Of a stretch of DNA of 64,000 nucleotides, positions 38,855 through 59,773 are shown piece after piece (position 1 is the first letter of the stretch; each line of letters starts with the position of its first letter). The position numbers were made by a program, and so were the translations under genes. Source of the stretch: Nitrospinaceae bacterium (lineage in GTDB: Bacteria > Nitrospinota > Nitrospinia > Nitrospinales > Nitrospinaceae). Location of the stretch: contig OZ245011.1 of assembly GCA_965223665.1 (NCBI GenBank), forward strand, positions 2,528,001 to 2,592,000, written 5' to 3'. Under the pieces are notes generated by a model. That model did no database searches. It worked only from the letters and a program-made list of their open reading frames with translations, and was not told where the DNA came from.

Positions 38855-39029
38855 TTTCCCCTCCAAATATACTTTCGCTCCTTAAAAGTATCTATAACCT
38901 TTTCAGGTAGTTAAATAGTAATGTGTGTGACCATACCTTATCAGGTTGGGTAGATATTGCAAAAATAAATTCGCCTGTTTGGCGGTTAAATTTAAAAGTT
39001 TCAATACCGTAACAAATCAGCAATATTTC
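37074..39029. repeat. About 1.96-kb direct repeat, copy 1 (5' part and upstream region of paralog B)
   Basis: Appears identical to 43150-45105 (offset 6076); shadow ORFs are identical in both copies. Confidence 0.9.
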
Positions 39030-39155
39030 GGAAAGTTGATAAAAATATATTTTTTGATTGGATTAAATAAACTTTCGCTTGACGGAATGCAATTCCAGCA
39101 ATCAATTATGAGAAAGGACTAAATTTGCCACTTGTAGCAGCCAAAAACTAAATTT

Positions 39156-42100: not shown

Positions 42101-44930
42101 TTTCCCACGAAACTTCGTTTTCTGTCCATTCCGCTTCCACTTCCAATATGTCATGGGCCACCGGAGAGTCATTAAACACATTAAATGAAACGTCCACAGC
42201 GGTTACAATAGCACCTGAAGGAATGGCCGATACATCCCATTTGGTAACAAATGTGAGTTCACCAAATTGGCCTGTATCTGGATCAACAGATACACCATCT
42301 CCCCAAAGTTCAGTATCGTCTCCTAAATTTTTATGTCGCGAAGTTTCAGTTAAAGTTGAATCCTCTGTCCCAAAATAAAAGGCACTTGGCTCCACCCCAT
42401 CCTGGAAACTGATCGTATTCACCAGAATGCTTTCCGGAACTTTAACCGTAACTTTTTGAGTGTCTGTTCCAGTATTGCCTGCCGCGTCCGTTGCGGTCCA
42501 GGTTACTATAGTCATTCCCAAAGGAAACCCACCTGCTGGCGCATCGTTACTGACTGTTGGAGATCCATTATCATCGACTGCAACTGCGGAACCAAGAGTC
42601 ACCGAAGTTTGATCCCCAGTAGCATCCACAATTACATCCTCCGGGGCAATGATTGATGGAGATATACTGTCCGCCCCAGTAGGTAATGTATAAGTCACCG
42701 ATATTCGAGGGCGTATATCGGTCTGTCTGGAAAAAAAGCGGATTGCATTCCACCAGTCGGGATGTTCGCCCGGTCCACCATTCTGCACTGCCAATCCGTT
42801 ATTTGTGATGGTCCCGTCCACCCAACCCTGAACTACACTGATGCCTGCGGCATTTAGCGGAACCGTGTTCAAAACAAACTTCTGTGGTGTGATGGTTCCC
42901 ATGATTGTGCCGCTTACATTGGTCAATCCGCCAAAGCTATTCCAGGTAGTTCCCATTTCCGTCCAGGAAGTTAAAATCTGGCGTAAATGATAAGACGTCT
43001 CACTGCGGTTAAATAAATCAAAATACACGGTGGCCGATTGAATCGTCGCATTCGATGGAATGGAGGATAAATCCCAGGAAACTAAAACAATTGCATCTCC
43101 CTGAATGGCGTTTTCAAAGAGACCATGAGAAACGAGTTCTCCCTTCGTCCCGTAATTCGTATCCGGTGCCCCTTCAAAAATATAAGTATCCCGGGTTCCA
43201 TTGTATCCGGAGTGGGGGTACGTCCCATCCTGAAAGTGTGCTGAGTAAACAGGTGGATCTACAAAACTCGGAGTAAAACTGAACTGGCTCCCAGGGGCTG
43301 GAATCGCCGTATTGGATTCGTGATCCTGAACGTTGGTCACTGTAAGGTTGTACGTCGTTGTGTTACTCAATTCTGAAGTCAGTAACCTCACGGTTCGATA
43401 ATCATCCAACAGTTCTGCAGCCGTAATGGTAGCTCCGTTATCTAATACATAGTTAGCAGAATTCTCGGCACTTACTTTTTCCAAAGGCTCCGAAAACTGT
43501 ACTTCTAATGTCAACGGATTCGGCGCATAGACAGAAAACATCTCCGGAGGAAACGTATTCAAATCATGAGTAATCGTAAACTGGTCTTCGATTTTACCCA
43601 GGGAATCAATAAAGATCGCTTCCAGACGATTCTCATACACATCCAATACCATGGAACCTAATTTGTTTAATGGAATATACATTGCCGGATGACGGATCAA
43701 TACCGAAGACAATTGCCCCGAACTTCCGGCCACGGCATAAACAGCGCCGTCATCCCCTACTTTCGTACCATCCGGATTTAAGGCTTTGGTATAGGCCCCA
43801 TCCGCCATATGCAGCGGTTCGGATTTACCATTCCCACTGTCTAAGGCATGAGTGCCCAGATTAAAAGTCGTCTGATCCCCATAATGTCCATTCAGAAAAT
43901 AAGACCGCTCATAAGAATGACTGTGACCCGACAACACTAAATCCACTCCATTGCTTTCCAGAATAGGAACAATGTTCTCACGCATTTCAATTAATATTTG
44001 CTCTAAATTGGAGTTATGAGAACCTCTTGAATAAGGAGGATGGTGCCAATACGCAATGATCCATTCCTTATCATTGGCCGCTAAATCACTCTGCAACCAG
44101 GTGATCATTGAGGAAGGTGCAACTCGGGGATGACCAAACGAATCCAAGACAATAAAGTGAATATTGCCGTAATCAAACGAATAATACGCCTCAGTTCCCG
44201 AGGCCACTCCACCGGCTTCTGCCGCTCGTGGTAACTGCCAGATATCAAAATAGGTCCCGGTTTCACTTCCCGAAGTGGCACTGCCAGCATCATGATTCCC
44301 AAACGTTGGCCACACTGATACATTCCTTAAAAATTCCGGATACATCAGGAAAACGCCATCGTGGTGGTCGCGATCGTCACCATCTTCATAGGCATTGTCT
44401 CCCAGCATCAACCAGATATCCGGATCACGGTCTTTTGTATAATTCTTAAATCGTTCACCCACCACTAAGGCACGGATGTCCCCAGTCCCGGAATCTCCTA
44501 CCGCCCAAATCCGAATCGGCTTTGCTGTCCCAGGGGTTGGGGGAGTTTTAAAGCTTCCATTGAGTTTGGTTTCTGTGGAAGGTGTGGTCGATGTTCCGAC
44601 TGCATAATAGTAACGGGTATCGGCCGTCAAACTGAGAGTCACTTCATATTCTCGCCAGTCCTCAGGACAATAACTACAAGACTTGGTCACTGCTGTCGCA
44701 TCGGTTACTACGGTGGTTAAACTTCCCGGAGACGTCCCAAAATGAATGCTGTCATTGAAATCCTCGGAAGCGGGAACGCGCCACTTCACAATTACGCTAT
44801 TGGGGGTAAGAGTTTGGAGGAAAGGACCCCAATCATTTATATCCGCAAAAGCTGTTTTCCCAAAAAACAAAAAACATAGAGTTATTGCAAAAAACCATTT
44901 ATGGTTTTTTGTAGTAACAAAACCGGCCAT
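39156..44930 (-). CDS. Secreted PAP-like metallophosphoesterase with 5 DNRLRE-like and 5 HYR domains (paralog C)
   Basis: N-terminal ~590 aa identical to paralog B; different C-terminal module order. Confidence 0.85.
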   Translation of the reverse strand: MAGFVTTKNHKWFFAITLCFLFFGKTAFADINDWGPFLQTLTPNSVIVKWRVPASEDFNDSIHFGTSPGSLTTVVTDATAVTKSCSYCPEDWREYEVTLSLTADTRYYYAVGTSTTPSTETKLNGSFKTPPTPGTAKPIRIWAVGDSGTGDIRALVVGERFKNYTKDRDPDIWLMLGDNAYEDGDDRDHHDGVFLMYPEFLRNVSVWPTFGNHDAGSATSGSETGTYFDIWQLPRAAEAGGVASGTEAYYSFDYGNIHFIVLDSFGHPRVAPSSMITWLQSDLAANDKEWIIAYWHHPPYSRGSHNSNLEQILIEMRENIVPILESNGVDLVLSGHSHSYERSYFLNGHYGDQTTFNLGTHALDSGNGKSEPLHMADGAYTKALNPDGTKVGDDGAVYAVAGSSGQLSSVLIRHPAMYIPLNKLGSMVLDVYENRLEAIFIDSLGKIEDQFTITHDLNTFPPEMFSVYAPNPLTLEVQFSEPLEKVSAENSANYVLDNGATITAAELLDDYRTVRLLTSELSNTTTYNLTVTNVQDHESNTAIPAPGSQFSFTPSFVDPPVYSAHFQDGTYPHSGYNGTRDTYIFEGAPDTNYGTKGELVSHGLFENAIQGDAIVLVSWDLSSIPSNATIQSATVYFDLFNRSETSYHLRQILTSWTEMGTTWNSFGGLTNVSGTIMGTITPQKFVLNTVPLNAAGISVVQGWVDGTITNNGLAVQNGGPGEHPDWWNAIRFFSRQTDIRPRISVTYTLPTGADSISPSIIAPEDVIVDATGDQTSVTLGSAVAVDDNGSPTVSNDAPAGGFPLGMTIVTWTATDAAGNTGTDTQKVTVKVPESILVNTISFQDGVEPSAFYFGTEDSTLTETSRHKNLGDDTELWGDGVSVDPDTGQFGELTFVTKWDVSAIPSGAIVTAVDVSFNVFNDSPVAHDILEVEAEWTENEVSWEIISHNTTVGSTIFGSIPPLTFNENVVTLNQAGIDLVQGWVDGTIPNGGFYIQTAGSNNGMGVHSSEATTATTRPKITISYTLLTGPDTEPPVVTAPADIVGFEATGPTTPVDIGTATATDNVGVTSLTNDAPAEFPLGTTTVTWTAMDAAGNSGTDTQDVTVVDTTAPTVTAPSDLTTTETTPNIGTGTANDLVDGAITPTNDSPGTFPLGTTIVTWSATDAAGNTGTDTQSVTVQEAPGGPVTVSFQEGVLPDAGYAGTQDSLLRQTSPDQNFGTDVQLLSDAVAPDPSNGLFGEVMSVVSWDLTSVPNTAVVSSASITMDFFDASSGPYNFLQALTPWNEGTVTWNSFGGGSANVGTDIIATIPGFSFNETEVNLTAEGLSLVQGWIDGSIANNGLVLKTGGSNNGVGANSSEATTNRPKITITYSIPTGGDTEPPVVTAPADIVTVSTGDLTPVSLGTGTANDNVDGPLVPTNDAPAGGFPVGTTVVTWSATDSSGNTGTDTQNVTVQIPVSGGVEAVSFQEGVEPNPAYVGVQDSYLRQTSPDQNVGTDVQLLSDAVAPDPSNGLFGEVMTVVNWDVSGIPTNATVQSVSITMDFFDASSGPYNFLQALTPWNEGTVTWNSFGGGSANVGTDIIATIPGFSFDETEVNLTAQGISLVQGWIDGSIPNNGLVLKTSGTNNGVGANSSEATTNRPKLNITFSTPSGGGDTIPPVVTAPADIVTVSTGDLTPVSLGTGTANDNVDGPLVPTNDAPAGGFPVGTTVVTWSATDSSGNTGTDIQLVTIQVPTVSGSNTTSFQDEVSPSIVYLGTQDALLRESSPDINDNDLELWADGVSPDPNNGLFGEVVSVISWDVSPIPTNAVVTSVSITIDLFNSSSGIHDFLQANASWSEDSVTWNSFGGTDSIGAIVLGTIDPFLFNEQEIVLNIDGTNLVQGWIDGSISNNGIVVRSAGTNDGIGWNSSEEVTGRPKLTVNYTMP

Positions 44931-45105
44931 TTTCCCCTCCAAATATACTTTCGCTCCTTAAAAGTATCTATAACCTTTTCAGGTAGTTAAATAGTAATGT
45001 GTGTGACCATACCTTATCAGGTTGGGTAGATATTGCAAAAATAAATTCGCCTGTTTGGCGGTTAAATTTAAAAGTTTCAATACCGTAACAAATCAGCAAT
45101 ATTTC
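43150..45105. repeat. About 1.96-kb direct repeat, copy 2
   Basis: Matches 37074-39029. Confidence 0.9.
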
Positions 45106-45360
45106 AAATTAAGAAAAAATAGATAATTAAATAGATTTAATAATTTAGGAAAATACGGTTGTTCCCAAAAAATCCCTTGATCCAACATTCTTAACTTTAA
45201 ACGTTAAACCAGAACCACCAATTTAGCTAAGGCCAAAAGGCTGAATTTATTAGTATGATAGAAATTTAAGTTCTTAAATAAGCTCTGACTTACTTAGAAA
45301 TAACCGAGTTGTGTGGTTGCTTTACAAAAAGCTTGAAACTGGAATCTGTATGATAGATCT

Positions 45361-45510
45361 ATGAAACAAAATTTCCAAGAACGCTTCAGCCTGGATGATA
45401 CTTCCGGCATTCTCTTTTATGATAACGAAAAGGAGAGGTTAGCCCTGGAAGAGGAAAATTATATAAATCCCGATTTCAAAGATTTTAGGACGTCACAGAT
45501 GTTTTTATGA
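45361..45510 (+). CDS. Possible 49-aa acidic small protein (MKQNFQERFSLDD...)
   Basis: Open frame ATG 45361 to TGA 45510; TATGAT lies 6 nt upstream, which would suit a leaderless mRNA. Confidence 0.3.
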   Translation: MKQNFQERFSLDDTSGILFYDNEKERLALEEENYINPDFKDFRTSQMFL

Positions 45511-45675
45511 AAAACTTATTTTTAAAGGCCATTAAAGAATTGGAGACCTTATTGTAGGATTAAAACAAATCTCCCTTTATACAAAGGGTAAAAAAAGGAG
45601 AATATTTTCTAGATAATTTTCTAATCTGAGATTAAGGAAATAAACTTTTTATATAGAATTGTTTTATTTTCTAAA

Positions 45676-45720
45676 GGCACGCCTGGCAGGACTCGAACCT
45701 GCGACCTACGGATTAGAAGT
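45676..45720 (-). mobile_element. att site: 3' fragment of tRNA-Arg(TCT)
   Basis: Reverse complement ACTTCTAATCCGTAGGTCGCAGGTTCGAGTCCTGCCAGGCGTGCC covers anticodon loop to acceptor stem. The 5' half of the tRNA is absent and an integrase is adjacent. Confidence 0.9.
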
Positions 45721-45892
45721 ACATCGAATACTTTAATTTCCTTTCCTTCCTTGATCTTCCCATAAGTTCCCAATATAATAATTTCAGCTATTTATAAACC
45801 TTATCGAGAAAATTGTTTTTCTTCGAAAGTAGAGATGGGAAGTATTGGGAATGCAAAAATGTGATAAAAATGTGATAAAAGTAGACCCGCGG

Positions 45893-47098
45893 ATGAATAA
45901 CAAATCGGTCCACTGGGTTGGGACTAAATATCCCGGGGTGCAATTCAGGGAACATGAGACTCGCAAATTTAAAAGGCGATTAGACCGCTCTATCATCATT
46001 CGCTATCGAAAACACGGAAAATTAGTGAATGAAACTGTTGGTTGGGAAACTGATGGTGCCACTTTAGAAGAAGCGGCGAAACTACGTGGACAAATCATTC
46101 AAAATATTCGCTTAGGTTCTGGATTTCAATCTTTAAAAGAAAAGCGAGAGTTGGAGCAAACCAAACGAAAGAAGAAAATCGAAGAAAAGAAATCTAAAGA
46201 AATAGAAAATATATCTTTCGAACAATTAGCTCAAAATTATCTAGACTGGGCCAGGTCCCATAAAAAAAGTTGGCGTGATGACTACTCCCGCTACCAATAT
46301 CATTTGGGTCCATCTTTAGGGAAACTAGTTGCGAAAAAGATTAAAGTTTTAGAATTAGAACGATTCAAGAAAAAATTGAATCACAAAGGTCTTGCTCCAG
46401 GAACCATTCGTCATTGTTTAGTCTTAATCCGGCAAATCTACAACCGTGCCTCGCGGATAGGATTATTTGATGGTCCAAATCCGATTAAGGAAACCTCTCA
46501 AATTGATCGCCATTTTTTAAAAACACCTGATAACCGACGCTTACGGTTTTTGAGTCGAGATGAAGCAGATTCCTTACTTACGGAACTGAAGCAAAGAAGT
46601 CCGCAAGTGTATAACATGACCTTACTTTCGTTGCATACGGGTATGCGAGCCGGTGAAATATTTGCGCTTACTTGGCAAGATATAGACTTGGCCCATAAAA
46701 TTATCACTATTCGAAATCCTAAGAACAATGAAAGTCGGCAAGCGTATATGACACCGCAGGTTTTTGAAATATTGGGGCAATTAAAAAATGCTAACTCTAA
46801 AAGACAACATCTGATCTTTAGTAATCGCAAGGGAAACCAAATTAAAGAGATTTCGAATGTGTTTTCAAAGATTGTGCAACAGCTTGGGTTAAATGACGGG
46901 GTAACAGATTTAAGAAGCAAACTGGTATTTCATTCGATCCGGCACACGTTTGCAAGCTGGTTGGCTCTTCAAGGAGAAACCTTATTAACGATAAAGGAAT
47001 TAATGGGTCATAAAGATATAAACATGACAATGCGTTATGCTCATTTAATTCCAGATCAAAAAAGAAATGCAGTAATTAAACTGGGGATAGGAGAATAG
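45893..47098 (+). CDS. int: Tyrosine integrase
   Basis: Catalytic residues in TGMRAGE, NPKN, FHSIRHTFAS, LMGH, TMRYAH. Start uncertain (45845, 45851 or 45893). Confidence 0.95.
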   Translation: MNNKSVHWVGTKYPGVQFREHETRKFKRRLDRSIIIRYRKHGKLVNETVGWETDGATLEEAAKLRGQIIQNIRLGSGFQSLKEKRELEQTKRKKKIEEKKSKEIENISFEQLAQNYLDWARSHKKSWRDDYSRYQYHLGPSLGKLVAKKIKVLELERFKKKLNHKGLAPGTIRHCLVLIRQIYNRASRIGLFDGPNPIKETSQIDRHFLKTPDNRRLRFLSRDEADSLLTELKQRSPQVYNMTLLSLHTGMRAGEIFALTWQDIDLAHKIITIRNPKNNESRQAYMTPQVFEILGQLKNANSKRQHLIFSNRKGNQIKEISNVFSKIVQQLGLNDGVTDLRSKLVFHSIRHTFASWLALQGETLLTIKELMGHKDINMTMRYAHLIPDQKRNAVIKLGIGE

Positions 47099-47105
47099 GA
47101 ATAAA

Positions 47106-48071
47106 ATGAATGAATTAATAAAGTATTTAGAAATTCATCCTTCCTTTAACCAAAATACAAAACCTGAGCAATTAGAGAAAATTTTGAGAGGTCCATGGTG
47201 TCCATTACTTGGAAGAATTCCAAAACTCGGGCTGCCATTAAATTCACCCGAAAACAGGTGTTTGTTTATAATAATTGAATCAAGAAAATTATGGGGGATC
47301 GACTTTGAGCCAACTTTTAATAGATGTGGAAAAAATCCCGACTGGCCGAAAAAGAATAGTATAAATTCTTACCCCGAAAAGGAATTTGCGGAGATTGTTT
47401 TAAAGACGGCGCGTGAAATTGATCGGTTGTCACCGTCGATAATGTTGAATTCTGAAATTCGAGATCCCAAGAAAGATTATCTTTTAATGGAAGATGGATC
47501 TTACGCTATTTCTAAGGGTATTGATCAGGTTCCAATTCATGAAATACGAATTGTTGCGAATTCTTTGTTACGTCCAAGCTATCAAAAATTTAAAGATCAA
47601 CAACTTTTGGCAAGTCTAGCTATTTACAGTGCTTGGCATGTTTTTGAATTTTTGATAAGAAAATTTTCAGATGTAGATATAACTGAAATACTTCCCAGGT
47701 TATACCGGGCGGAAGGTTTATTAAGAACAGCAAAAATAATAGAGGGTAATGAAAAAGCCGAAGATTCAATAAAGTTAGGATTCCAAAAAGGACAAAAAGA
47801 AGGAATCTCAGTCCAAAATAGATTAAATGCCAAGAAACCCAGAAGGCCTGATCCGTTAAATGAATTTATTTTAAATATCCTTAAAAAAAATAAAGGCAAT
47901 CTAAATTCAAATCAAATGTGGCAGATTATTAAAGCAAATGTAGGCGAAGACTGTATAGTGACTGTGACCGATTCGGTTATTGAGTATGAAGATAAAAATT
48001 CCAGGATAAACTCGTTAAAGAAAAAATCTTTCCCTCCTCGATTCCATAGAATAAAAAAATTGCTCTTTTAA
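47106..48071 (+). CDS. Hypothetical island protein
   Basis: 321-aa ORF 7 nt after int with an AGGA RBS; basic C-terminus. Confidence 0.65.
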   Translation: MNELIKYLEIHPSFNQNTKPEQLEKILRGPWCPLLGRIPKLGLPLNSPENRCLFIIIESRKLWGIDFEPTFNRCGKNPDWPKKNSINSYPEKEFAEIVLKTAREIDRLSPSIMLNSEIRDPKKDYLLMEDGSYAISKGIDQVPIHEIRIVANSLLRPSYQKFKDQQLLASLAIYSAWHVFEFLIRKFSDVDITEILPRLYRAEGLLRTAKIIEGNEKAEDSIKLGFQKGQKEGISVQNRLNAKKPRRPDPLNEFILNILKKNKGNLNSNQMWQIIKANVGEDCIVTVTDSVIEYEDKNSRINSLKKKSFPPRFHRIKKLLF

Positions 48072-48170
48072 AATTTCAAAAGCGCGCTTTTGAAATTTTA
48101 CCAATGTAAATTAACTATCAATTATTAACCCAATGGAAAAGTTGGGAACTTTACATTGGAAAGGAGAATT

Positions 48171-48383
48171 ATGAATAAAGAAATCAACCCTAAAATGATA
48201 GCCCGCACAAATGTTCACGAGTTATTCCCTGGTCTTTCCTCTAAATACTTAGCCAATTTGAAATCACTGGGGAAAGGTCCTCAACCTTATAAAGTGGGAC
48301 GAAGAATTTTCTACCTTGTATCCGACATTGAAGGGTTTATGAAGAAAAATCCTCTTCCTTTAAAAGCTGGAAACCCTATTTAA
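48171..48383 (+). CDS. AlpA/excisionase-like HTH DNA-binding protein
   Basis: GLSSKYLANLKSLGKGPQPYKVGRRIFYLVSDI matches the MerR-like HTH pattern of Xis/AlpA proteins; AGGAG RBS. Confidence 0.8.
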   Translation: MNKEINPKMIARTNVHELFPGLSSKYLANLKSLGKGPQPYKVGRRIFYLVSDIEGFMKKNPLPLKAGNPI

Positions 48384-48501
48384 ATTCTCAAATTGTTAAT
48401 TTAAGTCAATGCAGCAAATATTGAAAAATTTATTTTTTTACATAATTTTATACTGCCGTGAGAATAATACTTTCCAAAGGATTTAAAATCAAAGGTGAAT
48501 T

Positions 48502-49596
48502 ATGAAATGGTTTAAACATATGACCGATGCTCAAGATGATGAATTTATTGCCGAATTGGAATCTCAGTATCGTGGATTTGATGGTCCTGGTCGATGGTGG
48601 AGATTGTTAGAAATCATTGGCAAGCATGTGGACCAAACAGGGAAGTGTGAAGCCATCTATTCTGTTTCGCAATGGTGTCAAAAGTTAAAAGTGACGCGTT
48701 CAGGTCTGCTTAAGTTTACAAACTTGGTGGTAATTTGGGGCAAAGTGGAAACCAAAACTATTGATACAAGAATGCTAATAAGATGCCCTAAGTTACTAGA
48801 AATAAGAGATGAATATACAAGGAAATCCGGACAATCTCCTGATAAACTCCAACCAGAAACAGAAGCAAAAACAAATTTAAGAAATAATAAAAAAGAAAAG
48901 AGTGTAGAAAAGCCTTCACTCTCAATGACTGTGAAACAAAAATTTACAAATCTAAAGCAACTTGGTCCTCCCGCATCTTTAAATGGCAATGTATCTGATA
49001 TTGATAAATTCTTAAACCAAGCTCAACGTGTTCATACTAAGATCCGGGGACCAATGATCCTAAATCAAAAAAGGGACGTTAAGGTAGCGCATCGGTTAGT
49101 AAAGGAAATTCCAGACTTCAAACGGCTCAACCTACTCTGGACAATTTTTCTTAATCTAAATAATTCCTGGCTTAACACCAACCCTGGTAGGCGCTGTTTG
49201 AGCGTGTTCCCAAAGTTTTTAAATGATTGCCAAGCAGAAGTTAATCGTTTGTTTAAAGCCCGGGATTACCGAAAACAAAATAGCAGACGGGGAAACAAAA
49301 CAACGCCAAAATATGAACCCTTAACTAGAGATGATCAAATCACTTGGCAAACAGTTTTGAAAGAAGTTGAGTCTTCTAACTTGCCAGAGAATTACCAAAC
49401 CTGGTTTACCCCAATTTATCCCTTAGGCCGCAAGGGGAAAAAATTAATTATTGCAGTTCCTAACGAATATTTTTCACGTTGTTTATCTGAAAACTATTTA
49501 AAGAGGATTATGAAAATATTGAATGAACTGGATAGTACAATTGAAAATGTTGAATTTATGGCAAAACCTGAAGAAAACATGGGTGCATTCAATTAA
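48502..49596 (+). CDS. Phage-type replication initiator with a C-terminal DnaA domain I-like region
   Basis: N-terminal MKWFKH.TDA.DD...G.G.WW.LLE.I and PKLLEIRDEY (replisome-organiser-like); C-terminal WQTVL...YQTWFTP...LIIAVPNEY....SENY. Confidence 0.75.
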   Translation: MKWFKHMTDAQDDEFIAELESQYRGFDGPGRWWRLLEIIGKHVDQTGKCEAIYSVSQWCQKLKVTRSGLLKFTNLVVIWGKVETKTIDTRMLIRCPKLLEIRDEYTRKSGQSPDKLQPETEAKTNLRNNKKEKSVEKPSLSMTVKQKFTNLKQLGPPASLNGNVSDIDKFLNQAQRVHTKIRGPMILNQKRDVKVAHRLVKEIPDFKRLNLLWTIFLNLNNSWLNTNPGRRCLSVFPKFLNDCQAEVNRLFKARDYRKQNSRRGNKTTPKYEPLTRDDQITWQTVLKEVESSNLPENYQTWFTPIYPLGRKGKKLIIAVPNEYFSRCLSENYLKRIMKILNELDSTIENVEFMAKPEENMGAFN

Positions 49597-49632
49597 TGGT
49601 CAATTGATTTTTAGTTGATATCATTTTTATAG

Positions 49633-49730
49633 CTTACGGGTCCTTCCTAGGGGTCGTGCCTAACGGGTGCGCGGCAGCACTGGATATCGCTAGAGAACTG
49701 TCCAAAAAATGTTTTGACGTTTTGACGCTT
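49633..49730 (+). other. Lambda-like cos site (cosQ, cosN, possible cosB repeats)
   Basis: TTACGGGTCCT...AACG-GGTGCGCGGCAG-CACTGG-ATA-TCGCTA, then TTTTGACG x2; a GC-rich patch directly upstream of terS. Confidence 0.7.
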
Positions 49731-49806
49731 TAGAAAGTCTTTTAAACTGTTTTTGGATTCTCAAAACCTTTGTAACTCATTTCAAATAAAAGACTGAAAT
49801 ATTTTT

Positions 49807-50346
49807 ATGGAATTAGTTTCTCTTTATGAATATGAAAAAAGAACGGGAATCAAGCGTCAAAAAACTCACTACAATGTAAAAATTGGACGCCTCAAAACTT
49901 ATAAGGGAAAAATAAATGTAGATGAGGCCAATGAACTATTTGGCTTAATAGATAAGATTGAATCAAATCAAGAATCTTTTCATTCAAATAAATCCAATAA
50001 GAATGAAGAGGAATTCAATTACTATAAGGAACGAGCTATACATGAAAAGTTAAAAATACAACTCACACAATTAGAATTGGGAAGAAAGTCCGGTCAACTT
50101 GTGGAAATTGAATTAGTAGATCAGGAATTGAGTAAGTTAGTAACCGCAGTTCGCCAGAGGTTGTTGGCTTTACCTACCAAACTTACACCTCAACTAGTTA
50201 ATCAAAAATCTCCGGGGTTCATTAAAGAATTAATTACTGAAGCAATTTACGAAGCATTAAGTGAATTTCAACATTATAACCCGGAAAGCGGAAAAATTCT
50301 CTCCGAAAAACTCACATGCTCTCAAGGAGAAAGTGATAATTATTGA
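49807..50346 (+). CDS. terS: Terminase small subunit, lambda Nu1/Rpp-like
   Basis: N-terminal HTH; YYKERAIHEKLK.QL.QLE...SGQLV...V.......VRQRLLALP.KL.P coiled-coil pattern typical of Nu1-like TerS. Confidence 0.8.
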   Translation: MELVSLYEYEKRTGIKRQKTHYNVKIGRLKTYKGKINVDEANELFGLIDKIESNQESFHSNKSNKNEEEFNYYKERAIHEKLKIQLTQLELGRKSGQLVEIELVDQELSKLVTAVRQRLLALPTKLTPQLVNQKSPGFIKELITEAIYEALSEFQHYNPESGKILSEKLTCSQGESDNY

Positions 50347-50582
50347 CTCACTATCTTTTAACTTATATTATTTCTTTAAGAATTAAAGACAAAACTAATT
50401 TTTCAGGTTTCTCGAGAAGGGTTGAGGGTAAATTGTTCAAATCCTAAAAAAAGAAAATTCGATGTTATGCAATTTACATCTTCCTCAGCAAATTATTGAT
50501 ATTTTGAATTATTTTTTAAATTGGATAAAAAATTAATTTTTTTATTTAAATAAATTTAACTCCAATAGGTTCGTAGTTTTTT

Positions 50583-52277
50583 ATGAAAGCTGGTATTACT
50601 TTCCTAGGTATAATTTTAATAATAATTCCTCTTACTTTTTCTGATATTTTTGCAGATGGGGAGCGCGGTCTCAGAGTAATTTTGACTGACAAACCCAAAA
50701 ATAAAGTGTTCTATAAGGAAAGTCATGCATTAATAATCGGTGCAACCAATTATACGCAAGGTTGGCCTAGTTTTCCTAACATCGAAAACGAAATTAACAA
50801 GATAAAAGAAATTCTTTCAAAAATTGGATTTGATGTTGAAGTATTAATGGATCCCACAAAAAGCCAAATGGTTTCGTATATATCAGATTTTGCAGACCAC
50901 TTCGGTCAAGAGATTGATTCTCGCATATTTCTTTATTTTATTGGTCACGGATATTCTCACAAAAATTTCTTTTCTCAGAAAACCGGATTCTTTGTACCGG
51001 TTGATGCACCGAAACCGAATAAAGATTTAGACGGATTTATAAAAAAAGCCTTTTCTTTAAATGAACTAGAGTCTATTACCAGTGGAATTAAAGCAAAACA
51101 TATTTTGTATCTATTTAATAGTTCCTTTACTAATGCCAATATGTCTTCCACTCCTTTTTCACAAAATGAAATAACTTTGGAAACCAACCAAGCTTCCAGG
51201 CAAATAATAATTGCTGATACTAATAGTTTATTGGTTGGGAAAAAACATGGGTTGGGGGAAATGTTTGTTAATGCTCTAAAAGGAATGGGAGACTTCAACA
51301 AAGATGGAAAAATAACCGGAAGTGAATTAGCTAAATACTTTCGTGATTCAATAAAAGAGTATTCAAATGAGAACTGGGATATACAGTTTGGAAACTTCCA
51401 AAGTTTGGAGAATGCAAAAGGGGATTTTGTTTTTTCAAAAATCTCCTCAGAGTTATCAGAAGATAAATCTATTCACTCTTATGAAAATTCAGAAAAAGAT
51501 GAAAACACGGACGATTTTAAAACCGAGACCTCTATTGATGAAAAGAAGCGTATTGCTGAGGAGGAGAGAAGGATAAAAGAGATAAAGGAAAAGCTGAAAT
51601 TATCAAGTTTGGAACCCCAAAAAAAGATTCCTTTTGTAACCCAATCTACTCCCCCTGAAGGAATGGTATTTGTTCTAGGTTCCGAATACCTAGCCGGTTC
51701 TGAGAAAACAGGAAGTGACTCTGTACCTTTACGAAAAGTATTTATTCAGAGTTTCTACATTGATAAAACAGAGGTAACCCAAGAGAAATATAAAAAAATC
51801 ATGGGAAGAAATCCCTCAAGGTTTAAAGGAGAAAATCTTCCTGTGGAAAGAGTTAGTTGGTCAAAAGCCCGAAAGTATTGCCAAAAAATAGGTAAACGAC
51901 TTCCTACAGAGGCAGAATGGGAATATGCTGCGAGGGGAGGAGCTGGAAATAATTCACTCGGAGATTATTGGTTCAATGGAAATACTCAACATAGTCAACC
52001 AGTTGGGAAGAAGGAACCCAATTCAATTGGATTATACGATATGCTTGGGAATGTGTGGGAATGGACCCAAGACTGGTATGACAAAAATTACTATGAAACC
52101 AGATTGGATAATAACCCTCTTGGCCCTAAAAAAGGAACTAAAAAAGTTTTACGTGGTGGAGCATGGAATTCATCCTTGGATATGATTCATCCCTCTTATC
52201 GAAGTTACTACGATCCCAGATACAAGAGTGCGACTTTTGGTTTTCGATGTGCGAAAAGCTTAAAAAATAACCAGTGA
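50583..52277 (+). CDS. Secreted caspase-like (peptidase C14 fold, catalytic Cys absent) plus FGE/SUMF1-domain protein
   Basis: SHALIIG..NY, FIGHG, but LFNSSF in place of DxC. C-terminal FYIDKTEVT, PVERVSW, RLPTEAEWEYAARG, DMLGNVWEW, FGFRC. Confidence 0.85.
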   Translation: MKAGITFLGIILIIIPLTFSDIFADGERGLRVILTDKPKNKVFYKESHALIIGATNYTQGWPSFPNIENEINKIKEILSKIGFDVEVLMDPTKSQMVSYISDFADHFGQEIDSRIFLYFIGHGYSHKNFFSQKTGFFVPVDAPKPNKDLDGFIKKAFSLNELESITSGIKAKHILYLFNSSFTNANMSSTPFSQNEITLETNQASRQIIIADTNSLLVGKKHGLGEMFVNALKGMGDFNKDGKITGSELAKYFRDSIKEYSNENWDIQFGNFQSLENAKGDFVFSKISSELSEDKSIHSYENSEKDENTDDFKTETSIDEKKRIAEEERRIKEIKEKLKLSSLEPQKKIPFVTQSTPPEGMVFVLGSEYLAGSEKTGSDSVPLRKVFIQSFYIDKTEVTQEKYKKIMGRNPSRFKGENLPVERVSWSKARKYCQKIGKRLPTEAEWEYAARGGAGNNSLGDYWFNGNTQHSQPVGKKEPNSIGLYDMLGNVWEWTQDWYDKNYYETRLDNNPLGPKKGTKKVLRGGAWNSSLDMIHPSYRSYYDPRYKSATFGFRCAKSLKNNQ

Positions 52278-52280
52278 TTT

Positions 52281-55200
52281 CTATTTAACCGCAATCACAA
52301 GGTTCCTCATTCCTGTGGGTATTACTGCGAAAGGATGCTGCGTACTGTCCAGTTCTGAATTTGGAATGGATTTCAATAAAATTCCTCGACTTTGCATAGC
52401 AGATAATACTTCAATATTTCGCTTAGGAACTTCTTTGTCTACATAATTTCTTAATGAAGTAAAAAATAATTTTCCATCTTTAAATCGAGCCTTACCTTTT
52501 ATCCCATCTATGATTGCCCGGGTGAAAACGCCGCCCTTTTCCGTTTCTAATCCAAGTTCCTGACGAGATGTTCCTGTATAAATAATAGAATTCACATCAT
52601 GAATATCTTTAGCTAATTTCTGAAGGTCTTTCGAGTTTTCACTAATCACTTCCCCAGCTTCGCAAGTATCAATAATTACCATGCGTCTGCCAAGGGTTTG
52701 ATCTAAGATTTTATGCAATTTTACCCAATCAAAGCTAGTCCCCGAAGTAGACACTTTTAACTGACTATTGGATTTTTTGATTTCAGAATCTGCTGTCAAA
52801 AAATGATAATTTCCCTTTTCGTCAGTTATCCCGTGACCCGCAAAAAAATAGATCGTAGTATCATTTGGTCCAATATTTTGTATCTGGTTCAATAAAAAGG
52901 TATCAATGTCTGAGGCTTTTATTAATTTCCCATCTTGATCAGTCAAAATATTCACAACAACATTTTTAAAAAGTTTTTTTCCTTTAATTTTAAAAAGTTG
53001 AGCCATATTGAAAGCATCCAGAGGAGGGGAATACAATTGTTGCTTCTCAGGTAAATTGGGATATTGACCTATCCCAATAGCATTAACATGCAAGGTACCT
53101 TCATTGTTTTCGTTTTTATCTTTTTTGTTATTTTTTACCCATCTTTGATCACCATTTTCTGCCCACAAATTTTCAACCAGAACCTTTATGTGGTTATTAC
53201 TTCTTGGAAGAAAAGTTTGAAAATGTAAAGTATCCCCAGGATTGACTCCAGAAAGATTTCTTTGCTCTTGGGGAAGGATTTGGAAACCATTTACATAAAT
53301 GGTTATCCGTTCGGGTACCGTAATCTTATTTTTCCCCAGTTTGATGTTTATATCTGTTTTCCCTGATTTGTCGGTCTGGATGGATGCAATTTTTACATTT
53401 ACCGGAGCTCGTTTGATTAACTCATCAACCGAAATTTTTTCCAGGCCGGCCTTTTTAATTGCCCGCGTTGAGGAACTTAAAGCAAGAGTATCTCTAATAA
53501 TATCAGGACGATAAAGAAATCGGCGAAATTGGGAAGCAGTGTAATAATCGGCTGGCTTATCATATCCTCTATTTACCCGCCAACCCACATAACGATCTCC
53601 TTTGGGAGAAGCATCATAAAACCCCTCAGGTGTCCAAGCAACCCACTCATCATCAAATCCATGAAAAATACTGAGAAGCAGGCTACCTGAAGATATATCC
53701 CAAATCTTTATTGTTTGATCCGCGGAGCCTGAAAATAGCCAGCGGTTATCAGGCGAAACCGATAAAGCCCAAACATCAGACGTATGACCAATAAAGTCAT
53801 TCACTTTTTTGCCATTTTCAATGTTGTAAGAAGTTAAAACACCGTGAGCACCCCCACTAATAATTAATTTCCCGTTGTGAGTTATGGTAACACTTCGGTG
53901 GTCAGAACCCGTAAACTGGTCTTTCTTTATCCTTTTATGAAAGACTCCCTTTTTATAAATGTTAAGAGTAGGATGAATATTTTTATTAGGTGTATCTATT
54001 GACCAGTTTTCTATTTTCTTAAAAGCCTGAAAATAATTTTTATCGTCTTGTATTAAAGAACCGACACCAAGATTAAAATCACCAGAGGGTTCCTGCAAAA
54101 TAAAACTTTTTAAGAGAGGAACATTGAACTTAAGGCAACTTTTTCCAGGACAAATTCTTTTTTTTCTCCAAGCAAGTCTCTTTCCCTCTTTTGAAATACC
54201 AATACCAAAAATTCCTTTTCCTTTTCCAACCAATTTTTTTATAACTTCTCCAGTAGATATGTCCCATAAATAAAATTCATGGTTTACTCCTCCACCTGTG
54301 AGAGCGATTTTTCCATTTGGAGAAATAGCTGTCGCTAATGTAATATTGTCATGTTTGCTAAAAAAAGATAGACGCTTCCCAGTTGGAATTTCAAAAACAT
54401 TGTTTATTGAGGTATCACCAGCAGCTCCAGTTAAAACTTTTTTCCCATCCGGAGAAATGGAAATATTTGCTACATCGGAACCCTGCACTCCTAAGATTTT
54501 TAAATATTTTCCAGTTAGGCCGTTCCATATTCGAATACTATTGTCCCGGCTTCCCGAAAGTATGTACTCCCCATTCGGAGTAAAAGCAACTGTATCAACA
54601 AAATCTATATGTCCTCTTAAGTTGGAAATTAGGTTGCCAGATGAAACATCCCATAGTTTTAACGTATTATCATGACTCCCTGTTACAACCATTGAGTCAT
54701 CCGGTGAAAAAGCGACTGCCGCAACTTTTCCTTTATGACCTTTCAATATATGTTTTGTTTTTCCAGTTTTTAGATTCCAAATTCTAGCAATATTATCAAA
54801 GCCTCCTGAGATCAAAAATTTACCACTATTTGAAAAAGCTAAGTCTAGAATAACGTTTGTATGCCCCTTTAATAATTTGATTATTTCACCAGTATGGAAA
54901 TCTATAATTCGAATATTTCCACATTGGCCGGGGCATTCATTGTGAAACCACCCTCCCAAAGCTAACAGATTATTATTGGGAGAAAGAGCCGCAGCGTATA
55001 TCATTCCTTCTGTTGCATTTCCAATTTGTCCCCTGAAAACTTTTGTGGTAATTCCTCTTTCAATATCTATCACACGGGCAGTTTTATCGTCAGAGATTGT
55101 AACCAAACTTTTACCATCTTTAGTAAAAAATGCATCTCTAATAATGGATGTATGACCTCCTGAATTAATTTCAAGAATAGGCTTTTCAAATGAATTTTTA

Positions 55201-55397
55201 GTATTACTAACCTTATTGAATGAAATATTAGTTCTATAGAATAATGGGGAGGTTAAGGATACGTTTTGAGGGGCAGCGTTTAACTTACTAGTGAAATGAG
55301 AAAAAAAAATAAAACAAATAGAAGTAATTATACTTAATATCAAATGCAATTTAGAAAGAGACCTGACAGGAAGGCCTATTTTGCATGTTTTTGACAT
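52281..55397 (-). CDS. WD40-repeat plus caspase (peptidase C14) protein, probably exported
   Basis: Many GH...WD repeats, EWVAWTPEGFYDAS linker, intact FFAGHG and IIDTCEAG dyad, N-terminal hydrophobic signal. Confidence 0.9.
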   Translation of the reverse strand: MSKTCKIGLPVRSLSKLHLILSIITSICFIFFSHFTSKLNAAPQNVSLTSPLFYRTNISFNKVSNTKNSFEKPILEINSGGHTSIIRDAFFTKDGKSLVTISDDKTARVIDIERGITTKVFRGQIGNATEGMIYAAALSPNNNLLALGGWFHNECPGQCGNIRIIDFHTGEIIKLLKGHTNVILDLAFSNSGKFLISGGFDNIARIWNLKTGKTKHILKGHKGKVAAVAFSPDDSMVVTGSHDNTLKLWDVSSGNLISNLRGHIDFVDTVAFTPNGEYILSGSRDNSIRIWNGLTGKYLKILGVQGSDVANISISPDGKKVLTGAAGDTSINNVFEIPTGKRLSFFSKHDNITLATAISPNGKIALTGGGVNHEFYLWDISTGEVIKKLVGKGKGIFGIGISKEGKRLAWRKKRICPGKSCLKFNVPLLKSFILQEPSGDFNLGVGSLIQDDKNYFQAFKKIENWSIDTPNKNIHPTLNIYKKGVFHKRIKKDQFTGSDHRSVTITHNGKLIISGGAHGVLTSYNIENGKKVNDFIGHTSDVWALSVSPDNRWLFSGSADQTIKIWDISSGSLLLSIFHGFDDEWVAWTPEGFYDASPKGDRYVGWRVNRGYDKPADYYTASQFRRFLYRPDIIRDTLALSSSTRAIKKAGLEKISVDELIKRAPVNVKIASIQTDKSGKTDINIKLGKNKITVPERITIYVNGFQILPQEQRNLSGVNPGDTLHFQTFLPRSNNHIKVLVENLWAENGDQRWVKNNKKDKNENNEGTLHVNAIGIGQYPNLPEKQQLYSPPLDAFNMAQLFKIKGKKLFKNVVVNILTDQDGKLIKASDIDTFLLNQIQNIGPNDTTIYFFAGHGITDEKGNYHFLTADSEIKKSNSQLKVSTSGTSFDWVKLHKILDQTLGRRMVIIDTCEAGEVISENSKDLQKLAKDIHDVNSIIYTGTSRQELGLETEKGGVFTRAIIDGIKGKARFKDGKLFFTSLRNYVDKEVPKRNIEVLSAMQSRGILLKSIPNSELDSTQHPFAVIPTGMRNLVIAVK

Positions 55398-55486
55398 TTT
55401 TAGATCTTGTATTGACTAAAAAAATATTAATTTTTTTTTAAAAAGAAATACTTCGTATTCTAAATAATTATACAATGAAATTAAAT

Positions 55487-57670
55487 TTATTGATCACCTT
55501 GACAGGCTTGGTCTCCTTCAATACAGCCTCCGGCATCTAACTCCTCTGTTTCTTGTTCAAGTAGGACTATCATATCTGCCGGGTCAGTTTTCTCAGGTTG
55601 TCTTTCTTCACTTTTAGTTTTAGTAATTTGGCGAGTAGATTGAACCGCCTGTTCAGCGGGTTCATTAGTTGTCTGGCTGTCCACTCGGGCTTGGCATGCT
55701 GGTCCGCTGCAATTTCTACCTCCCCCTCCGGGATCCCGTTTATATCCTCTTGGTTGTCCTAAAAGCACAAGCTGACCGCCCTCTATCGAACGGTCTGGAC
55801 CCCTTGTATCCAAGGTAATATTGTCTAAAAAGGAAAGATCCCGAAATTTCCAATCTAACACTTGCCCTTCGGTAACGGAATTTTCATCTTCATCTACCAC
55901 AGTATCTAAATTTGATATTAGAATCCCAATATTCCCTCCTCTGGTTGTAATTCTATTGTTTGTTTCTTCAAATATAATTTCATTTGTTTCAAAAAGTACA
56001 GAGGGGGTTGGGTATTTCTGGTCCCCAGGCGTAATTCCTCCGTCAATACCGTCTATTAAAAATTTTTCACCATCTTTACGTAAGGTTTGTTTAAGATCCA
56101 AGATATTATCTGAAAGCCTTTCTAAAATTATTGCTTCATCTGCAATTAAATGAATGAATGTATCTTTTCCTATTCTTTCCAAGGCTTCCTCCGAAACAAC
56201 CTCTGTTCCTAGTTCCGCATTATCTCTACTGTCTGGAACCGGATCTGTTTGAAAACCACTAAGATCATTTTCGATGGATCCTCCATCAAATTCAGTTCTA
56301 CTATCTGAAAATATCGAGATTTCACCAATAGGTTTTTCCAAGAGTGGTCTTCCAAATTCCTCATCAGTGATTCTCAATATTCTTGGATCTAACAATAGAG
56401 CTCCAGCTGAGCCATTTGTAGAACCTGCATCTACAAATCCAGCAAAAGTGAGGTTTTCTTTTCCTGATACTTCTACCAATCCACCGTCGCCCGAAACTGA
56501 ACCACCTCGTGAATCAATATTTCCAAAATAACGTGTCGTTCCATCCGCCCAAAGAATGACCTTGCCACCGTCTCCGTTTTCCAAAGCAGATGCATCAATT
56601 ATTGTATTGGGCCCTACATAAGTTTGAGTAGCATTCGGTACCTCTCCCTTACCCTGGAAATCTCCTCCGACTAATGCAGTTCCTCCTCCAGATACTCCCG
56701 AAACATTTATAAATGCATATTGAAATAACCCTACCTTATCTCCCAACACATGAACCGTACCACCCATATCCCCTGATTCATTGCCAGATGCATCCAATTC
56801 GCCGGTTACAGCAGTAATTCCATTCTCTCCACCCATCAGCCAGATTTCCCCATTTTTCTCCTGGAGAGTATTTGCCCGGATTCGACCTGAATGATTCACC
56901 GTATTACGAATTACGGAACCTGCATCCAACGCTGAAAGTATTACTCTTCCACCATCTGCTTCAATTATTCCGGTATTTAATACTCTATTTTCAAGAATGT
57001 TACCTTGATCATCAAGAACATCCCCTTCCACTGCTTCAGATATTGCGAAGTTAATCAAACCATCACCCGCAAAATCAAGAGTAACCTCAGTACCTGAAGC
57101 CAAGGCCACAGACCCAAGGTTTGCCGTTATGGTCCCTTTGTTGTATACCGCCGGAGCAAGTAATCCTATTGTGGTTCCCTCAATATGCCCTTCATTAATA
57201 ATTGCAGACAAGGGATTATTTGGATCTTGAGAAAACAAATAATTTTGATTCAAAAAATCCTGGTCTGAAATATTCAATGTAGTTGCTACTAAGCCTCCGA
57301 CATTAATACGGGCATCTTGACCAAAAATAATTCCTGAGCGGTTCGTAAGAAAAACTTTTCCATTCGAGGATAAACTTCCCAAAATAGCACTGGGATTAGC
57401 CCCTACCACTCGATTGAGCGCAACAGCATTTGAATTGGGTTGAGAAAAATGAACAGACTCAGCTTTTCCAATACTGAAGGAATTCCAATTGGTTATCAGT
57501 TGTTGGGAGGATTGGTTAATCACCATACTCTTCGGATCAGGTTGGTGAATATTTCCTTGACCAGATGTGATTTGACCTCCTTGGGGAAGTGCAAAGGAAG
57601 AAAGAGGATTAGCAAAATAAAGGATAATTAGAAAGCTGAGAAAACTTTTCTTGAAAAATATTTTATTCAT
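55487..57670 (-). CDS. TpsA / filamentous-haemagglutinin N-terminal (TPS) domain exoprotein
   Basis: Signal peptide then ALPQGGQITSG, NWNSFSIG, LNRV.G..PS.I.G.L.SNG.VFL.N, and GG.VEVSG...LLLDP beta-helix repeats. Confidence 0.9.
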   Translation of the reverse strand: MNKIFFKKSFLSFLIILYFANPLSSFALPQGGQITSGQGNIHQPDPKSMVINQSSQQLITNWNSFSIGKAESVHFSQPNSNAVALNRVVGANPSAILGSLSSNGKVFLTNRSGIIFGQDARINVGGLVATTLNISDQDFLNQNYLFSQDPNNPLSAIINEGHIEGTTIGLLAPAVYNKGTITANLGSVALASGTEVTLDFAGDGLINFAISEAVEGDVLDDQGNILENRVLNTGIIEADGGRVILSALDAGSVIRNTVNHSGRIRANTLQEKNGEIWLMGGENGITAVTGELDASGNESGDMGGTVHVLGDKVGLFQYAFINVSGVSGGGTALVGGDFQGKGEVPNATQTYVGPNTIIDASALENGDGGKVILWADGTTRYFGNIDSRGGSVSGDGGLVEVSGKENLTFAGFVDAGSTNGSAGALLLDPRILRITDEEFGRPLLEKPIGEISIFSDSRTEFDGGSIENDLSGFQTDPVPDSRDNAELGTEVVSEEALERIGKDTFIHLIADEAIILERLSDNILDLKQTLRKDGEKFLIDGIDGGITPGDQKYPTPSVLFETNEIIFEETNNRITTRGGNIGILISNLDTVVDEDENSVTEGQVLDWKFRDLSFLDNITLDTRGPDRSIEGGQLVLLGQPRGYKRDPGGGGRNCSGPACQARVDSQTTNEPAEQAVQSTRQITKTKSEERQPEKTDPADMIVLLEQETEELDAGGCIEGDQACQGDQ

Positions 57671-57713
57671 GACTCCCCCAAGTATAAAAATATCAAAAAA
57701 ATATCCTTTGAAA

Positions 57714-59477: not shown

Positions 59478-59773
59478 GAAGAATTCAGGTTAAGCGCATT
59501 GTTACTTTGATATTTTAATTGCTGTTTTTTAGGGTGATCTTGCTATTTCATGTCTAAAAAGTCAACTGTTTTTTTTCCGAAAATGATTGGTTAGTTTACA
59601 AAATATTCTTAAAGCAGGTGGGCGAGAAAAAGGAAAGAAAATGAGAGTAAATATAATCAATTTACAAAAATCCAAGCAAATTAATTAAACTAAAGTTAAA
59701 ATAAACCCTATATTTTCCAAAATTTACTTTACATCCAACTATGACTGCAAAAACTACAAAAATTGGTTATTTT

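Follow-up and report, generated by a model that had tools for sequence, protein, structure and literature searches.

In a stretch of 64,000 nucleotides from a Nitrospinaceae bacterium (assembly GCA_965223665.1, contig OZ245011.1, positions 2,528,001 to 2,592,000 of the forward strand; hereafter the window), the open reading frame (ORF) at 48502-49596 encodes a protein of 364 amino acids (aa) that ends in a homologue of DnaA domain I. Our reading, to which we give a probability of about one half, is that this gene is the replication initiator of an island integrated at a tRNA-Arg gene, and that the tail of the protein docks the host replication machinery, through the helicase DnaB or through another client of domain I. 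Judging by their sequences, related forms of the module likely serve the phages resident in the same genome.

A ribosome-binding-like motif, AAGGTG (repeat D11), lies a few bases 5' of the ORF. In the AlphaFold2 model of the protein (8-row alignment; mean predicted local distance difference test score, pLDDT, of 69.9), three folded parts are joined by a disordered linker, and the loose connection of the modules keeps the predicted template modelling score low (pTM 0.32). The layout of the gene is as follows.

48502-49596, forward strand: putative replication initiator, 364 aa, three modules; open reading frame with an ATG start
48535-48828, forward strand: module 1, residues 12-109, winged-helix-like and Lin1244_N (DUF4373)-related, from the helices and strands of the AlphaFold2 model, Foldseek, and homologues with PF14297
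48829-48990, forward strand: linker, residues 110-163, rich in K, E and N, pLDDT <50, of differing length among homologues
48997-49290, forward strand: module 2, residues 166-263, all-helical middle domain, from the AlphaFold2 model, kept in 13 homologues
49327-49563, forward strand: module 3, residues 276-354, DnaA domain I (DnaA_N), from Pfam, NCBIfam, PDB sequences, AlphaFold2 and Foldseek

The C-terminal domain I and the modules that precede it

A preliminary description of this DNA had proposed that the C-terminal ~80 aa (the peptide it cited covers residues 282-341) correspond to domain I of DnaA, and both the profile search and the structure comparison bear this out. Residues 281-341 match the Pfam family DnaA_N (PF11638) along positions 3-64 of its 65-position profile, with an E-value of 7.4e-10 and 38.8 bits against a curated cut-off of 24.6 bits. 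The NCBIfam model of DnaA (TIGR00362) aligns to residues 282-358 through its positions 1-77 only, scoring 33.3 bits where the cut-off for the whole protein is 343.9. Since only these first 77 positions are matched, the protein contains domain I but is not a DnaA, and Pfam finds neither the AAA+ ATPase (PF00308) nor the DnaA-box-binding domain (PF08299) in the 364 aa. Among PDB sequences, domain I of Bacillus subtilis DnaA (4tps_B) is retrieved at E 0.016 with the single protein and at 1e-09 with a four-sequence profile, which also retrieves that of Escherichia coli (2e0g_A, E 0.0086).

The predicted structure agrees with the profiles. Residues 276-354 are modelled, with pLDDT mostly between 82 and 87, as a helix-helix-strand-strand-helix-helix-strand block that holds the elements of a KH-like fold (helices 276-291, 298-302, 322-331 and 333-343; strands 306-311, 314-319 and 349-354). 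A Foldseek search of the PDB with this model gave two matches at E ≤ 0.001, both to the DnaA domain I in entry 4tps (target-normalised TM 0.80-0.82, root-mean-square deviation of 1.7 A, 76 columns), followed by domain I of Helicobacter pylori DnaA (2wp0_D, TM 0.65). By profile and predicted fold, the C-terminal domain is a homologous DnaA_N domain. It is most similar to the DnaA of the host's own lineage and, since it is homologous, the term "mimic" used in the preliminary description is the wrong word.

The positions through which domain I makes contacts are largely kept. In the PDB alignments, Trp6, Trp25, Asn44 and Phe46 of E. coli correspond to W282, W301, N321 and Y323, and T26, W27 and F49 of B. 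subtilis to T300, W301 and Y323. Among the interaction residues Trp6, Glu21, Trp25, Asn44 and Phe46, four out of five are thus kept or conservatively replaced (Phe to Tyr). The protein therefore shares with the DnaA domains I of 4tps, 2e0g and 2wp0 the family, the predicted fold, the dimer Trp and the aromatic and Asn positions of helices alpha2 and alpha3. In E. coli, the Trp6 position is described as serving dimerisation and the client positions as binding DnaB, DiaA and YfdR (PMC5448010, PMC12122000), and the corresponding positions of B. subtilis are described as binding DnaD (PMC6393240). Accounts of SirA binding name the same alpha2/alpha3 aromatic and Asn positions (PMC5448010, PMC6393240, PMC12122000). 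As described in these sources, YfdR, SirA and DiaA/HobA use this interface by binding domain I; the 364-aa protein takes the reverse approach and has the domain as part of itself. Unlike DnaA itself, the protein has domain I at its C-terminus, lacks the AAA+ and DnaA-box-binding domains, and is encoded by a mobile gene.

The N-terminal module, which is presumed to be the part that binds DNA at the origin, is more difficult to assign. Pfam finds nothing in residues 1-270 at E ≤ 1. In the whole protein, it reports no match to Phage_rep_org_N or the DnaD-like DnaB_2 at E ≤ 1, nor to the Rep_3/WH1-WH2 family, and a search of the whole genome with PF14297 (Lin1244_N) gave nothing at E ≤ 0.1. Two PHROGs, neither with a known function, match residues 1-47. 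Weak Foldseek matches (E 0.002-0.03) point to TubR, to MarR-type regulators and to the N-terminal domains of staphylococcal plasmid RepA (4pql, 4pt7 and 5kbj). An exhaustive profile search with the 364-aa protein retrieved 1572 proteins at E ≤ 0.001, of which 536 at E ≤ 1e-10, and nearly all of the best 150 of the 1572 align to residues 1 to ~140 alone. Lin1244_N was seen in six of the 10 N-terminal homologues scanned, once above the cut-off (P0025, 26.4 against 25 bits), and PF14297 is precomputed on two of 20 word-index matches of the protein; the homologues that match Lin1244_N are 34-47% identical to it over residues 1 to ~130. Because these homologues match Lin1244_N while the protein itself does not, we term its N-terminus Lin1244_N-related, and not a scored member of the family. 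The N-terminus had been described as similar to phage replisome organisers. This holds in that it is a winged-helix module of a family common in replication-type proteins of phages and prophages, and fails in that Phage_rep_org_N, DnaB_2 and PF14297 are not matched.

The middle domain, modelled separately from a 14-row alignment, reaches a pLDDT of 90.6. It has no fold match in the PDB by Foldseek (best E 2.6) and gives only weak matches in BFVD (best E 0.037), to the C-terminal parts of "helix-turn-helix" or replication-type proteins of uncultured phages.

Two groups of known initiators are built along similar lines. Phage replisome organisers and lambda O-type initiators combine Lin1244_N or Phage_rep_org_N with a DnaD-like DnaB_2 domain, and their C-terminal module contacts the helicase-loading machinery. 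The protein shares their N-terminal family, in that its homologues carry Lin1244_N, but its C-terminal module consists of the middle domain and DnaA_N instead of DnaB_2. RepA of staphylococcal multiresistance plasmids is a two-part initiator whose C-terminal part contacts the host. Its winged-helix N-terminus (RepA_N; 4pql, 4pt7, 5kbj) shows a weak Foldseek likeness to that of the 364-aa protein (E 0.007-0.018), but there is no match of sequence family and the C-terminal domain differs.

Recurrence of the module and its relation to host DnaA

The genome (4.35 Mb in 6 contigs) has four frames with DnaA_N. One is the true DnaA, a separate and complete protein of 445 aa, and the three others all sit in mobile DNA, namely the island, a prophage and a phage contig. 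The prophage copy (P0021), a paralogue of 433 aa, repeats the three-module layout and lies at the margin of a lambda-like prophage in the 2.27-Mb region that has a lambda-family portal and a gpA terminase. The third copy (289 aa, G000:C2:839-1708) consists of linker, middle domain and DnaA_N, and lies on contig C2, a phage contig of 36,972 bp with terminase, portal, protease, major head and tape-measure genes. The ~480 nt upstream of this copy hold no ORF of at least 80 aa. Contig C2 may be incomplete at its ends, its last ORF running off the end, and its large terminase is split between two adjoining ORFs of 343 and 285 aa (G000:C2:3658-5587), which align to successive parts of phrog_15, perhaps because of a frameshift, an interruption of the gene or an error in the assembly.

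The island is not alone in having this design, since the module is present in two resident phages and in mobile genes of related genomes. Among 60 related Nitrospinota genomes, the 364-aa protein mostly matches DnaA itself (52 of 61 genomes have a match, its own included). Five of the 60 have in addition six frames other than DnaA, of 371-457 aa, and DnaA_N scores above the cut-off in five of the six (19.3 bits in the sixth). The N-terminal parts, or heads, of these proteins are of several types. Lin1244_N-like heads are found on the 364-aa protein, P0021, P0023, P0024 and P0029; DUF1376-like heads with an "FYPxxW" motif on L056, L057, L059 and the database protein P0093 (Pfam matches all below the cut-off); and HTH_36 heads on L058 (29.5 bits, above the cut-off) and L060 (below it). 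The head of L055 is of yet another type. The middle domain and DnaA_N align throughout across homologues with differing heads. In initiators of phages and plasmids, the head sets the specificity for the origin, and contact with the host machinery is made by the tail. As far as alignment and analogy can tell, a constant C-terminal module with swappable DNA-binding heads is the layout expected of such initiators.

Outside of this lineage, the same design is seen in a protein of a Paenibacillus rhizovicinus megaplasmid (L097, NZ_CP048287.1, 108782-109780), from a phylum unrelated to Nitrospinota, which combines HTH_36 with a C-terminal DnaA_N (38.6 bits, above the cut-off) and is annotated merely as "helix-turn-helix domain-containing protein"; the comparison covers the HTH_36 head and the DnaA_N tail. 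Among 30 matches of a database search, 18 are canonical DnaA and 12 have DnaA_N and lack the ATPase domain, none of the 12 being named by any source. Phage-rich clusters in the ESM Atlas bear the automatic name "DnaA N-terminal domain-containing protein" (scores 0.77-0.90), and DnaB_2 is carried by 13% of the members of one Atlas cluster of DnaA_N proteins; we take these as leads only. An alignment-based scan of viral_contigs gave 63 pattern matches, none of which was confirmed. A tblastn search of GenBank phages with the C-terminal domain found four short unannotated records with 29-34% identity, which may be fragments of bacterial dnaA, and a word-index search with residues 270-364 alone returned only the query itself.

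The domain I of the island protein is 44% identical to that of host DnaA, and 52% and 55% identical to the two phage copies. The identity to host DnaA is unevenly spread: 21 of 27 residues (78%) are identical in the alpha2/alpha3 segments (residues 294-305 and 318-332), against 14 of 52 (27%) in the remainder of the domain. From this comparison of sequences, we conclude that selection keeps the client face of the mobile domain. A motif scan of 185,579 species genomes gave 11 confirmed loci, all of them N-termini of DnaA, and 10 of the 11 are titled Nitrospina, Nitrospinaceae or Nitrospinota (the other "Nitrospirae"), which places the host in this group.

We then placed the mobile copies in a tree built by maximum likelihood from 47 sequences of domain I (13 mobile and 34 of DnaA, 85 columns, no outgroup beyond the order), leaving out the duplicate loci L004/L005, L061, L062, L068, L044-L049 and L051, and P0119, which has no domain match. 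The mobile copy of genome G036 nests in the DnaA clade of its own host genus (support 98/99). The three copies of the present genome group with P0093 (99/99) within an unresolved polytomy of host-family DnaA, and four long-branch copies form a separate group (91/83). Forcing all mobile copies together changes the log-likelihood by -22.9 units; a single origin is thus rejected marginally (approximately unbiased test, p = 0.044), from an alignment that is short and a tree with long branches. We conclude that the mobile domain derives from the DnaA of the host lineage, probably more than once.

Two simpler accounts of the likeness to host DnaA were rejected. Recent gene conversion with host dnaA does not fit the G036 copy, which shares 44 of 78 residues with its host DnaA but only 130 of 234 nucleotides, with 12 shared codons at the 44 identical residues; for the island copy, 35 of 75 residues are identical to host DnaA, with 18 shared codons and 56.4% nucleotide identity. 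Nor does each mobile copy best match the DnaA of its own host. Only the C2 copy and one copy of genome G040 rank it first among 34, and it ranks 5th, 3rd, 10th, 4th and 8th for the remaining mobile copies, the differences being small.

The tRNA-Arg island

The gene lies in an island whose left part is in the window and contains the following features.

45676-45720, reverse strand: left attachment (att) repeat, a 45-nt 3' fragment of tRNA-Arg(TCT), from pattern search, ARAGORN and alignment
45845-47098, forward strand: tyrosine integrase, 417 aa (Pfam Phage_integrase, E 3.9e-33, 115.1 bits)
47106-48071, forward strand: 321-aa ORF without family (one weak PHROG match, E 0.021)
48069-48100, no strand: perfect 32-bp palindrome with 16-nt arms and no spacer (inverted repeat I14, 100% complementary)
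48156-48383, forward strand: excisionase/AlpA-like protein, 75 aa, weak assignment (phrog_10458, E 7.1e-05; phrog_66, "excisionase and transcriptional regulator", E 0.0011)
49597-49806, no strand: spacer of 210 bp between the initiator gene (rep) and terS, with a G+C-rich block at ~49625-49700 and GTTTTGAC twice in tandem (49712-49727)
49807-50346, forward strand: small-terminase-like protein (TerS), 179 aa (phrog_57, E 5e-21)
50347-64000, no strand: cargo in the window, comprising a caspase-FGE fusion, a WD40-caspase protein, a two-partner secretion exoprotein with its ShlB-type transporter, DUF4384, and ORFs without family

The 45-nt att pattern occurs once in the window. A search of the own genome found a second copy (96% over 51 nt, the att copies being identical at 45 of 45 positions), and ARAGORN places an intact tRNA-Arg(TCT) at G000:C1:2612330-2612406, outside the window at about window coordinate 84330-84406, and no tRNA at the left copy. 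An integrase gene and a direct repeat with the 3' end of a tRNA gene make this an integrative mobile island. Its length between the tRNA-Arg repeats is 38.7 kb, of which ~20 kb extend past the window end (G000:C1:2592001-2612406), so it is not a small element. The ORFs scanned in the island include no second integrase and no capsid, portal or tail family, several of them being without family. Contigs from public sequencing runs (four data sets of one study, none listed as RNA; shallow depth of ~2-5) cover the left junction and the genes. At this depth no joints are seen, and loose contig ends occur only at the tRNA-like repeat, where tRNAs of other organisms map too.

The absence of a primase, helicase or loader noted in the preliminary description was confirmed at the level of families. 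Searches of the whole genome for DnaB_C, Toprim_2, Prim-Pol and IstB (covering DnaB-type helicases, DnaG/Toprim and Prim-Pol primases, and DnaC/IstB-type loaders) gave no match in the island, in contig C2 or in the 2.27-Mb prophage, several island ORFs having no family at all. DnaB_C matches the chromosomal dnaB, contig C3 and one weak third site only; Toprim_2 matches a chromosomal dnaG-like locus only; Prim-Pol has no match genome-wide; and all IstB-type matches lie outside of these three elements. The host DnaB, DnaG and a DciA-type loader are present in the genome. Contig C3 (7,749 bp) has an integrase-like frame and a divergent DnaB-like helicase, 29% identical to host DnaB (310-1281 and 3535-4821), and is perhaps a further small mobile element, equipped with a helicase of its own.

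The gene order recalls phage satellites. Satellites of the type of phage-inducible chromosomal islands (PICI) carry int, a small xis/AlpA-like gene, rep and terS, and are typically 10-15 kb in size. The island has a matching set of genes, its terS being homologous to those of resident phages, and no virion structural family was found among its scanned ORFs. It differs from such satellites in its 38.7 kb, near the size of C2 (36,972 bp), and in its content, mostly defence and secretion cargo. In tblastn searches, the island TerS is 40% identical over 134 aa to a prophage protein (C1:2273771-2274163) and 37% over 166 aa to one of the phage contig (C2:3210-3686), and both of these homologues adjoin large terminase genes. 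As its TerS is related to those of both resident phages, the comparison suggests that the island might be packaged by them. On gene content, the mobility module resembles that of a phage satellite that shares its rep and terS types with resident phages.

Around the initiator gene, the 210-bp rep-terS spacer, A+T-rich apart from its G+C-rich block, is a candidate ori or pac region. A search of Rfam at E ≤ 1 on 44000-53000 gave a single chance-level match, and none in this spacer. The 32-bp palindrome between the end of the 321-aa ORF and the xis-like gene is a candidate operator or terminator. For the 321-aa ORF, no family of Pfam, NCBIfam or PADLOC reached the thresholds applied, and the 75-aa xis-like protein has no Pfam match.

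Concerning the cargo, two caspase-domain proteins stand back to back in the island, at 50583-52277 (forward) and 52281-55397 (reverse); one of the two is fused to an FGE-sulfatase-like domain, and the other (1038 aa) has WD40 propellers. Past the window end, the island carries Dcm with Vsr, an MzaC/MzaD-like pair, an AspBHI/Mrr-type endonuclease and a pentapeptide protein. Elsewhere in the window, a secreted-looking protein of 1928 aa (39156-44942, reverse) has several long internal repeats and lies in a stretch (24000-44000) where the G+C content (0.42-0.57) is well above the 0.33-0.40 usual in the window.

Possible modes of action and their meaning

In the mechanism that we propose, the winged helix would bind the origin of the element and the C-terminal module would offer its alpha2/alpha3 docking surface, as origin-bound DnaA does at oriC. 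Several initiator molecules on the DNA would then tether host DnaB, together with the DciA-type loader, or another domain I client. One polypeptide would combine what is divided, in iteron plasmids, between Rep and host DnaA, and the element would thus replicate without a helicase, primase or loader of its own. For RK2, it is described that DnaA at DnaA boxes first localises DnaB-DnaC, and that contacts between Rep and DnaB then shift the helicase to the unwound region (PMC4980987). In iteron plasmids such as RK2, with TrfA and host DnaA, a winged-helix origin binder and a DnaA docking function likewise bring DnaB to a mobile origin, as this source describes. There, however, two proteins are involved and DnaA is recruited via DnaA boxes, whereas here domain I is fused to the putative origin binder and no iterons were found.

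Several observations weigh against this reading. No iteron array was found by k-mer and repeat scans in 48000-50650, only scattered AT-rich 10-mers and one tandem 8-mer; the scans covered this region, and another part of the 38.7 kb may hold the origin. The copy of contig C2 has no N-terminal DNA-binding domain, so the module can occur apart from an origin binder. The island is large and mostly cargo, its excision and replication are themselves presumed, and the mechanism leaves the middle domain without a role. E. coli Glu21 aligns with N297, and there is no Glu at this position (E296 is adjacent); because the host DnaA has the same PEN motif, this is a trait of the lineage and not a loss. 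We infer helicase binding by the C-terminal domain by analogy, because of the biochemistry of E. coli, and we know of no data on domain I clients or DnaB contacts in DciA-type bacteria. The contact between domain I and DnaB is documented for E. coli, and according to a review none has been shown for H. pylori (PMC5448010). Predictions of a complex between the C-terminal domain and residues 1-195 of host DnaB gave scores of 0.52, 0.00 and 0.00 in three runs made without controls, and count neither for nor against such a contact.

The position of the dimer Trp bears on a first alternative, in which the C-terminal domain pairs with domain I of host DnaA, head-to-head via alpha1, and recruits the whole DnaA to the origin of the element. 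W282, the equivalent of E. coli Trp6, is invariant in 13 of 13 mobile copies and in 34 of 34 DnaA rows, E. coli Leu10 aligns with the conserved L286, and self-association of domain I is among its documented properties (PMC5448010); a likeness to the DnaA of the host lineage would, moreover, favour heterodimers. Yet alpha1 is among the least host-like parts of the domain (5 of 14 residues identical to host DnaA), the Leu and Cys that flank the Trp in DnaA (equivalents of L281 and C285, 100% and 97% conserved there) are T and V here, and the best-kept face is the alpha2/alpha3 client face, not the dimer face. We therefore consider such pairing unlikely.

The invariant W282 would equally fit a domain that only self-associates, bridging origin-bound initiators, or that acts as a weak KH-like binder of single-stranded DNA (ssDNA), or both, without contacting any host protein. 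Domain I is described as having a KH-like fold, binding ssDNA weakly, self-associating and promoting the oligomerisation of DnaA (PMC5448010). This is somewhat less probable still, since it leaves unexplained both the 78% identity of the alpha2/alpha3 client face to host DnaA and the clustering of a mobile copy with the DnaA of its own host genus; a generic oligomerisation module need not stay host-like.

The headless copy of contig C2 brings to mind interference with the host, where the domain would be a decoy that titrates domain I clients or poisons DnaA assemblies, and so stalls chromosome initiation upon induction of the element. The prophage protein YfdR is described as binding DnaA domain I in a Phe46-dependent manner and competing with DnaB and DiaA (PMC5448010, PMC12122000), and a free client face could compete in the same way. 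We regard this as improbable, as most copies have a DNA-binding N-terminus that is swapped between types, a hallmark of origin-specific initiators, and as the genes occupy the position of a replication module, flanked by the xis-like gene and terS in the island and beside nuclease genes on the phage contig. Finally, that the gene is a non-functional remnant in a fixed and immobile cargo island is hardly credible: cargo does dominate the island, but the 364-aa frame is intact with a good ribosome-binding motif, all three modules fold confidently in models with conserved residues kept, the frames of the integrase, the xis-like protein and TerS are unbroken too, and the att repeats still agree at every position.

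The modular logic of such initiators is already known, and proteins of this kind are present in databases under automatic or uninformative names. The design is rarely discussed in print and has no functional description in searchable papers: a full-text search, which covered few subscription journals, found no paper describing an initiator of a mobile element fused to DnaA domain I, and a paper on Fusobacterium initiators mentions PF11638 solely as part of canonical DnaA. Going beyond this genome, we hold it possible, at well under even odds, that elements of DciA-type bacteria captured the domain I of their host lineage repeatedly and kept its client face host-matched, as a portable adaptor linking any origin-binding domain to the helicase-loading machinery.

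Only in E. coli and B. subtilis is it understood in detail how the helicase reaches the origin, and most bacteria, including this host, use DciA. In this context, proteins that join interchangeable heads to domain I alone amount to a natural dissection of DnaA, and suggest that domain I is a transferable signal to recruit host machinery. If elements do use a captured, host-matched domain I as a portable adaptor, domain I alone would suffice as such a signal, and the isolated module would be a handle on the domain I client in bacteria whose loader is DciA and not DnaC or DnaI, offering small soluble baits, host-matched and mismatched, for the identification of this client. It would also account for small elements that replicate without a helicase, primase or loader of their own, and would flag many database proteins now called "hypothetical" or "helix-turn-helix domain-containing" as likely initiators.

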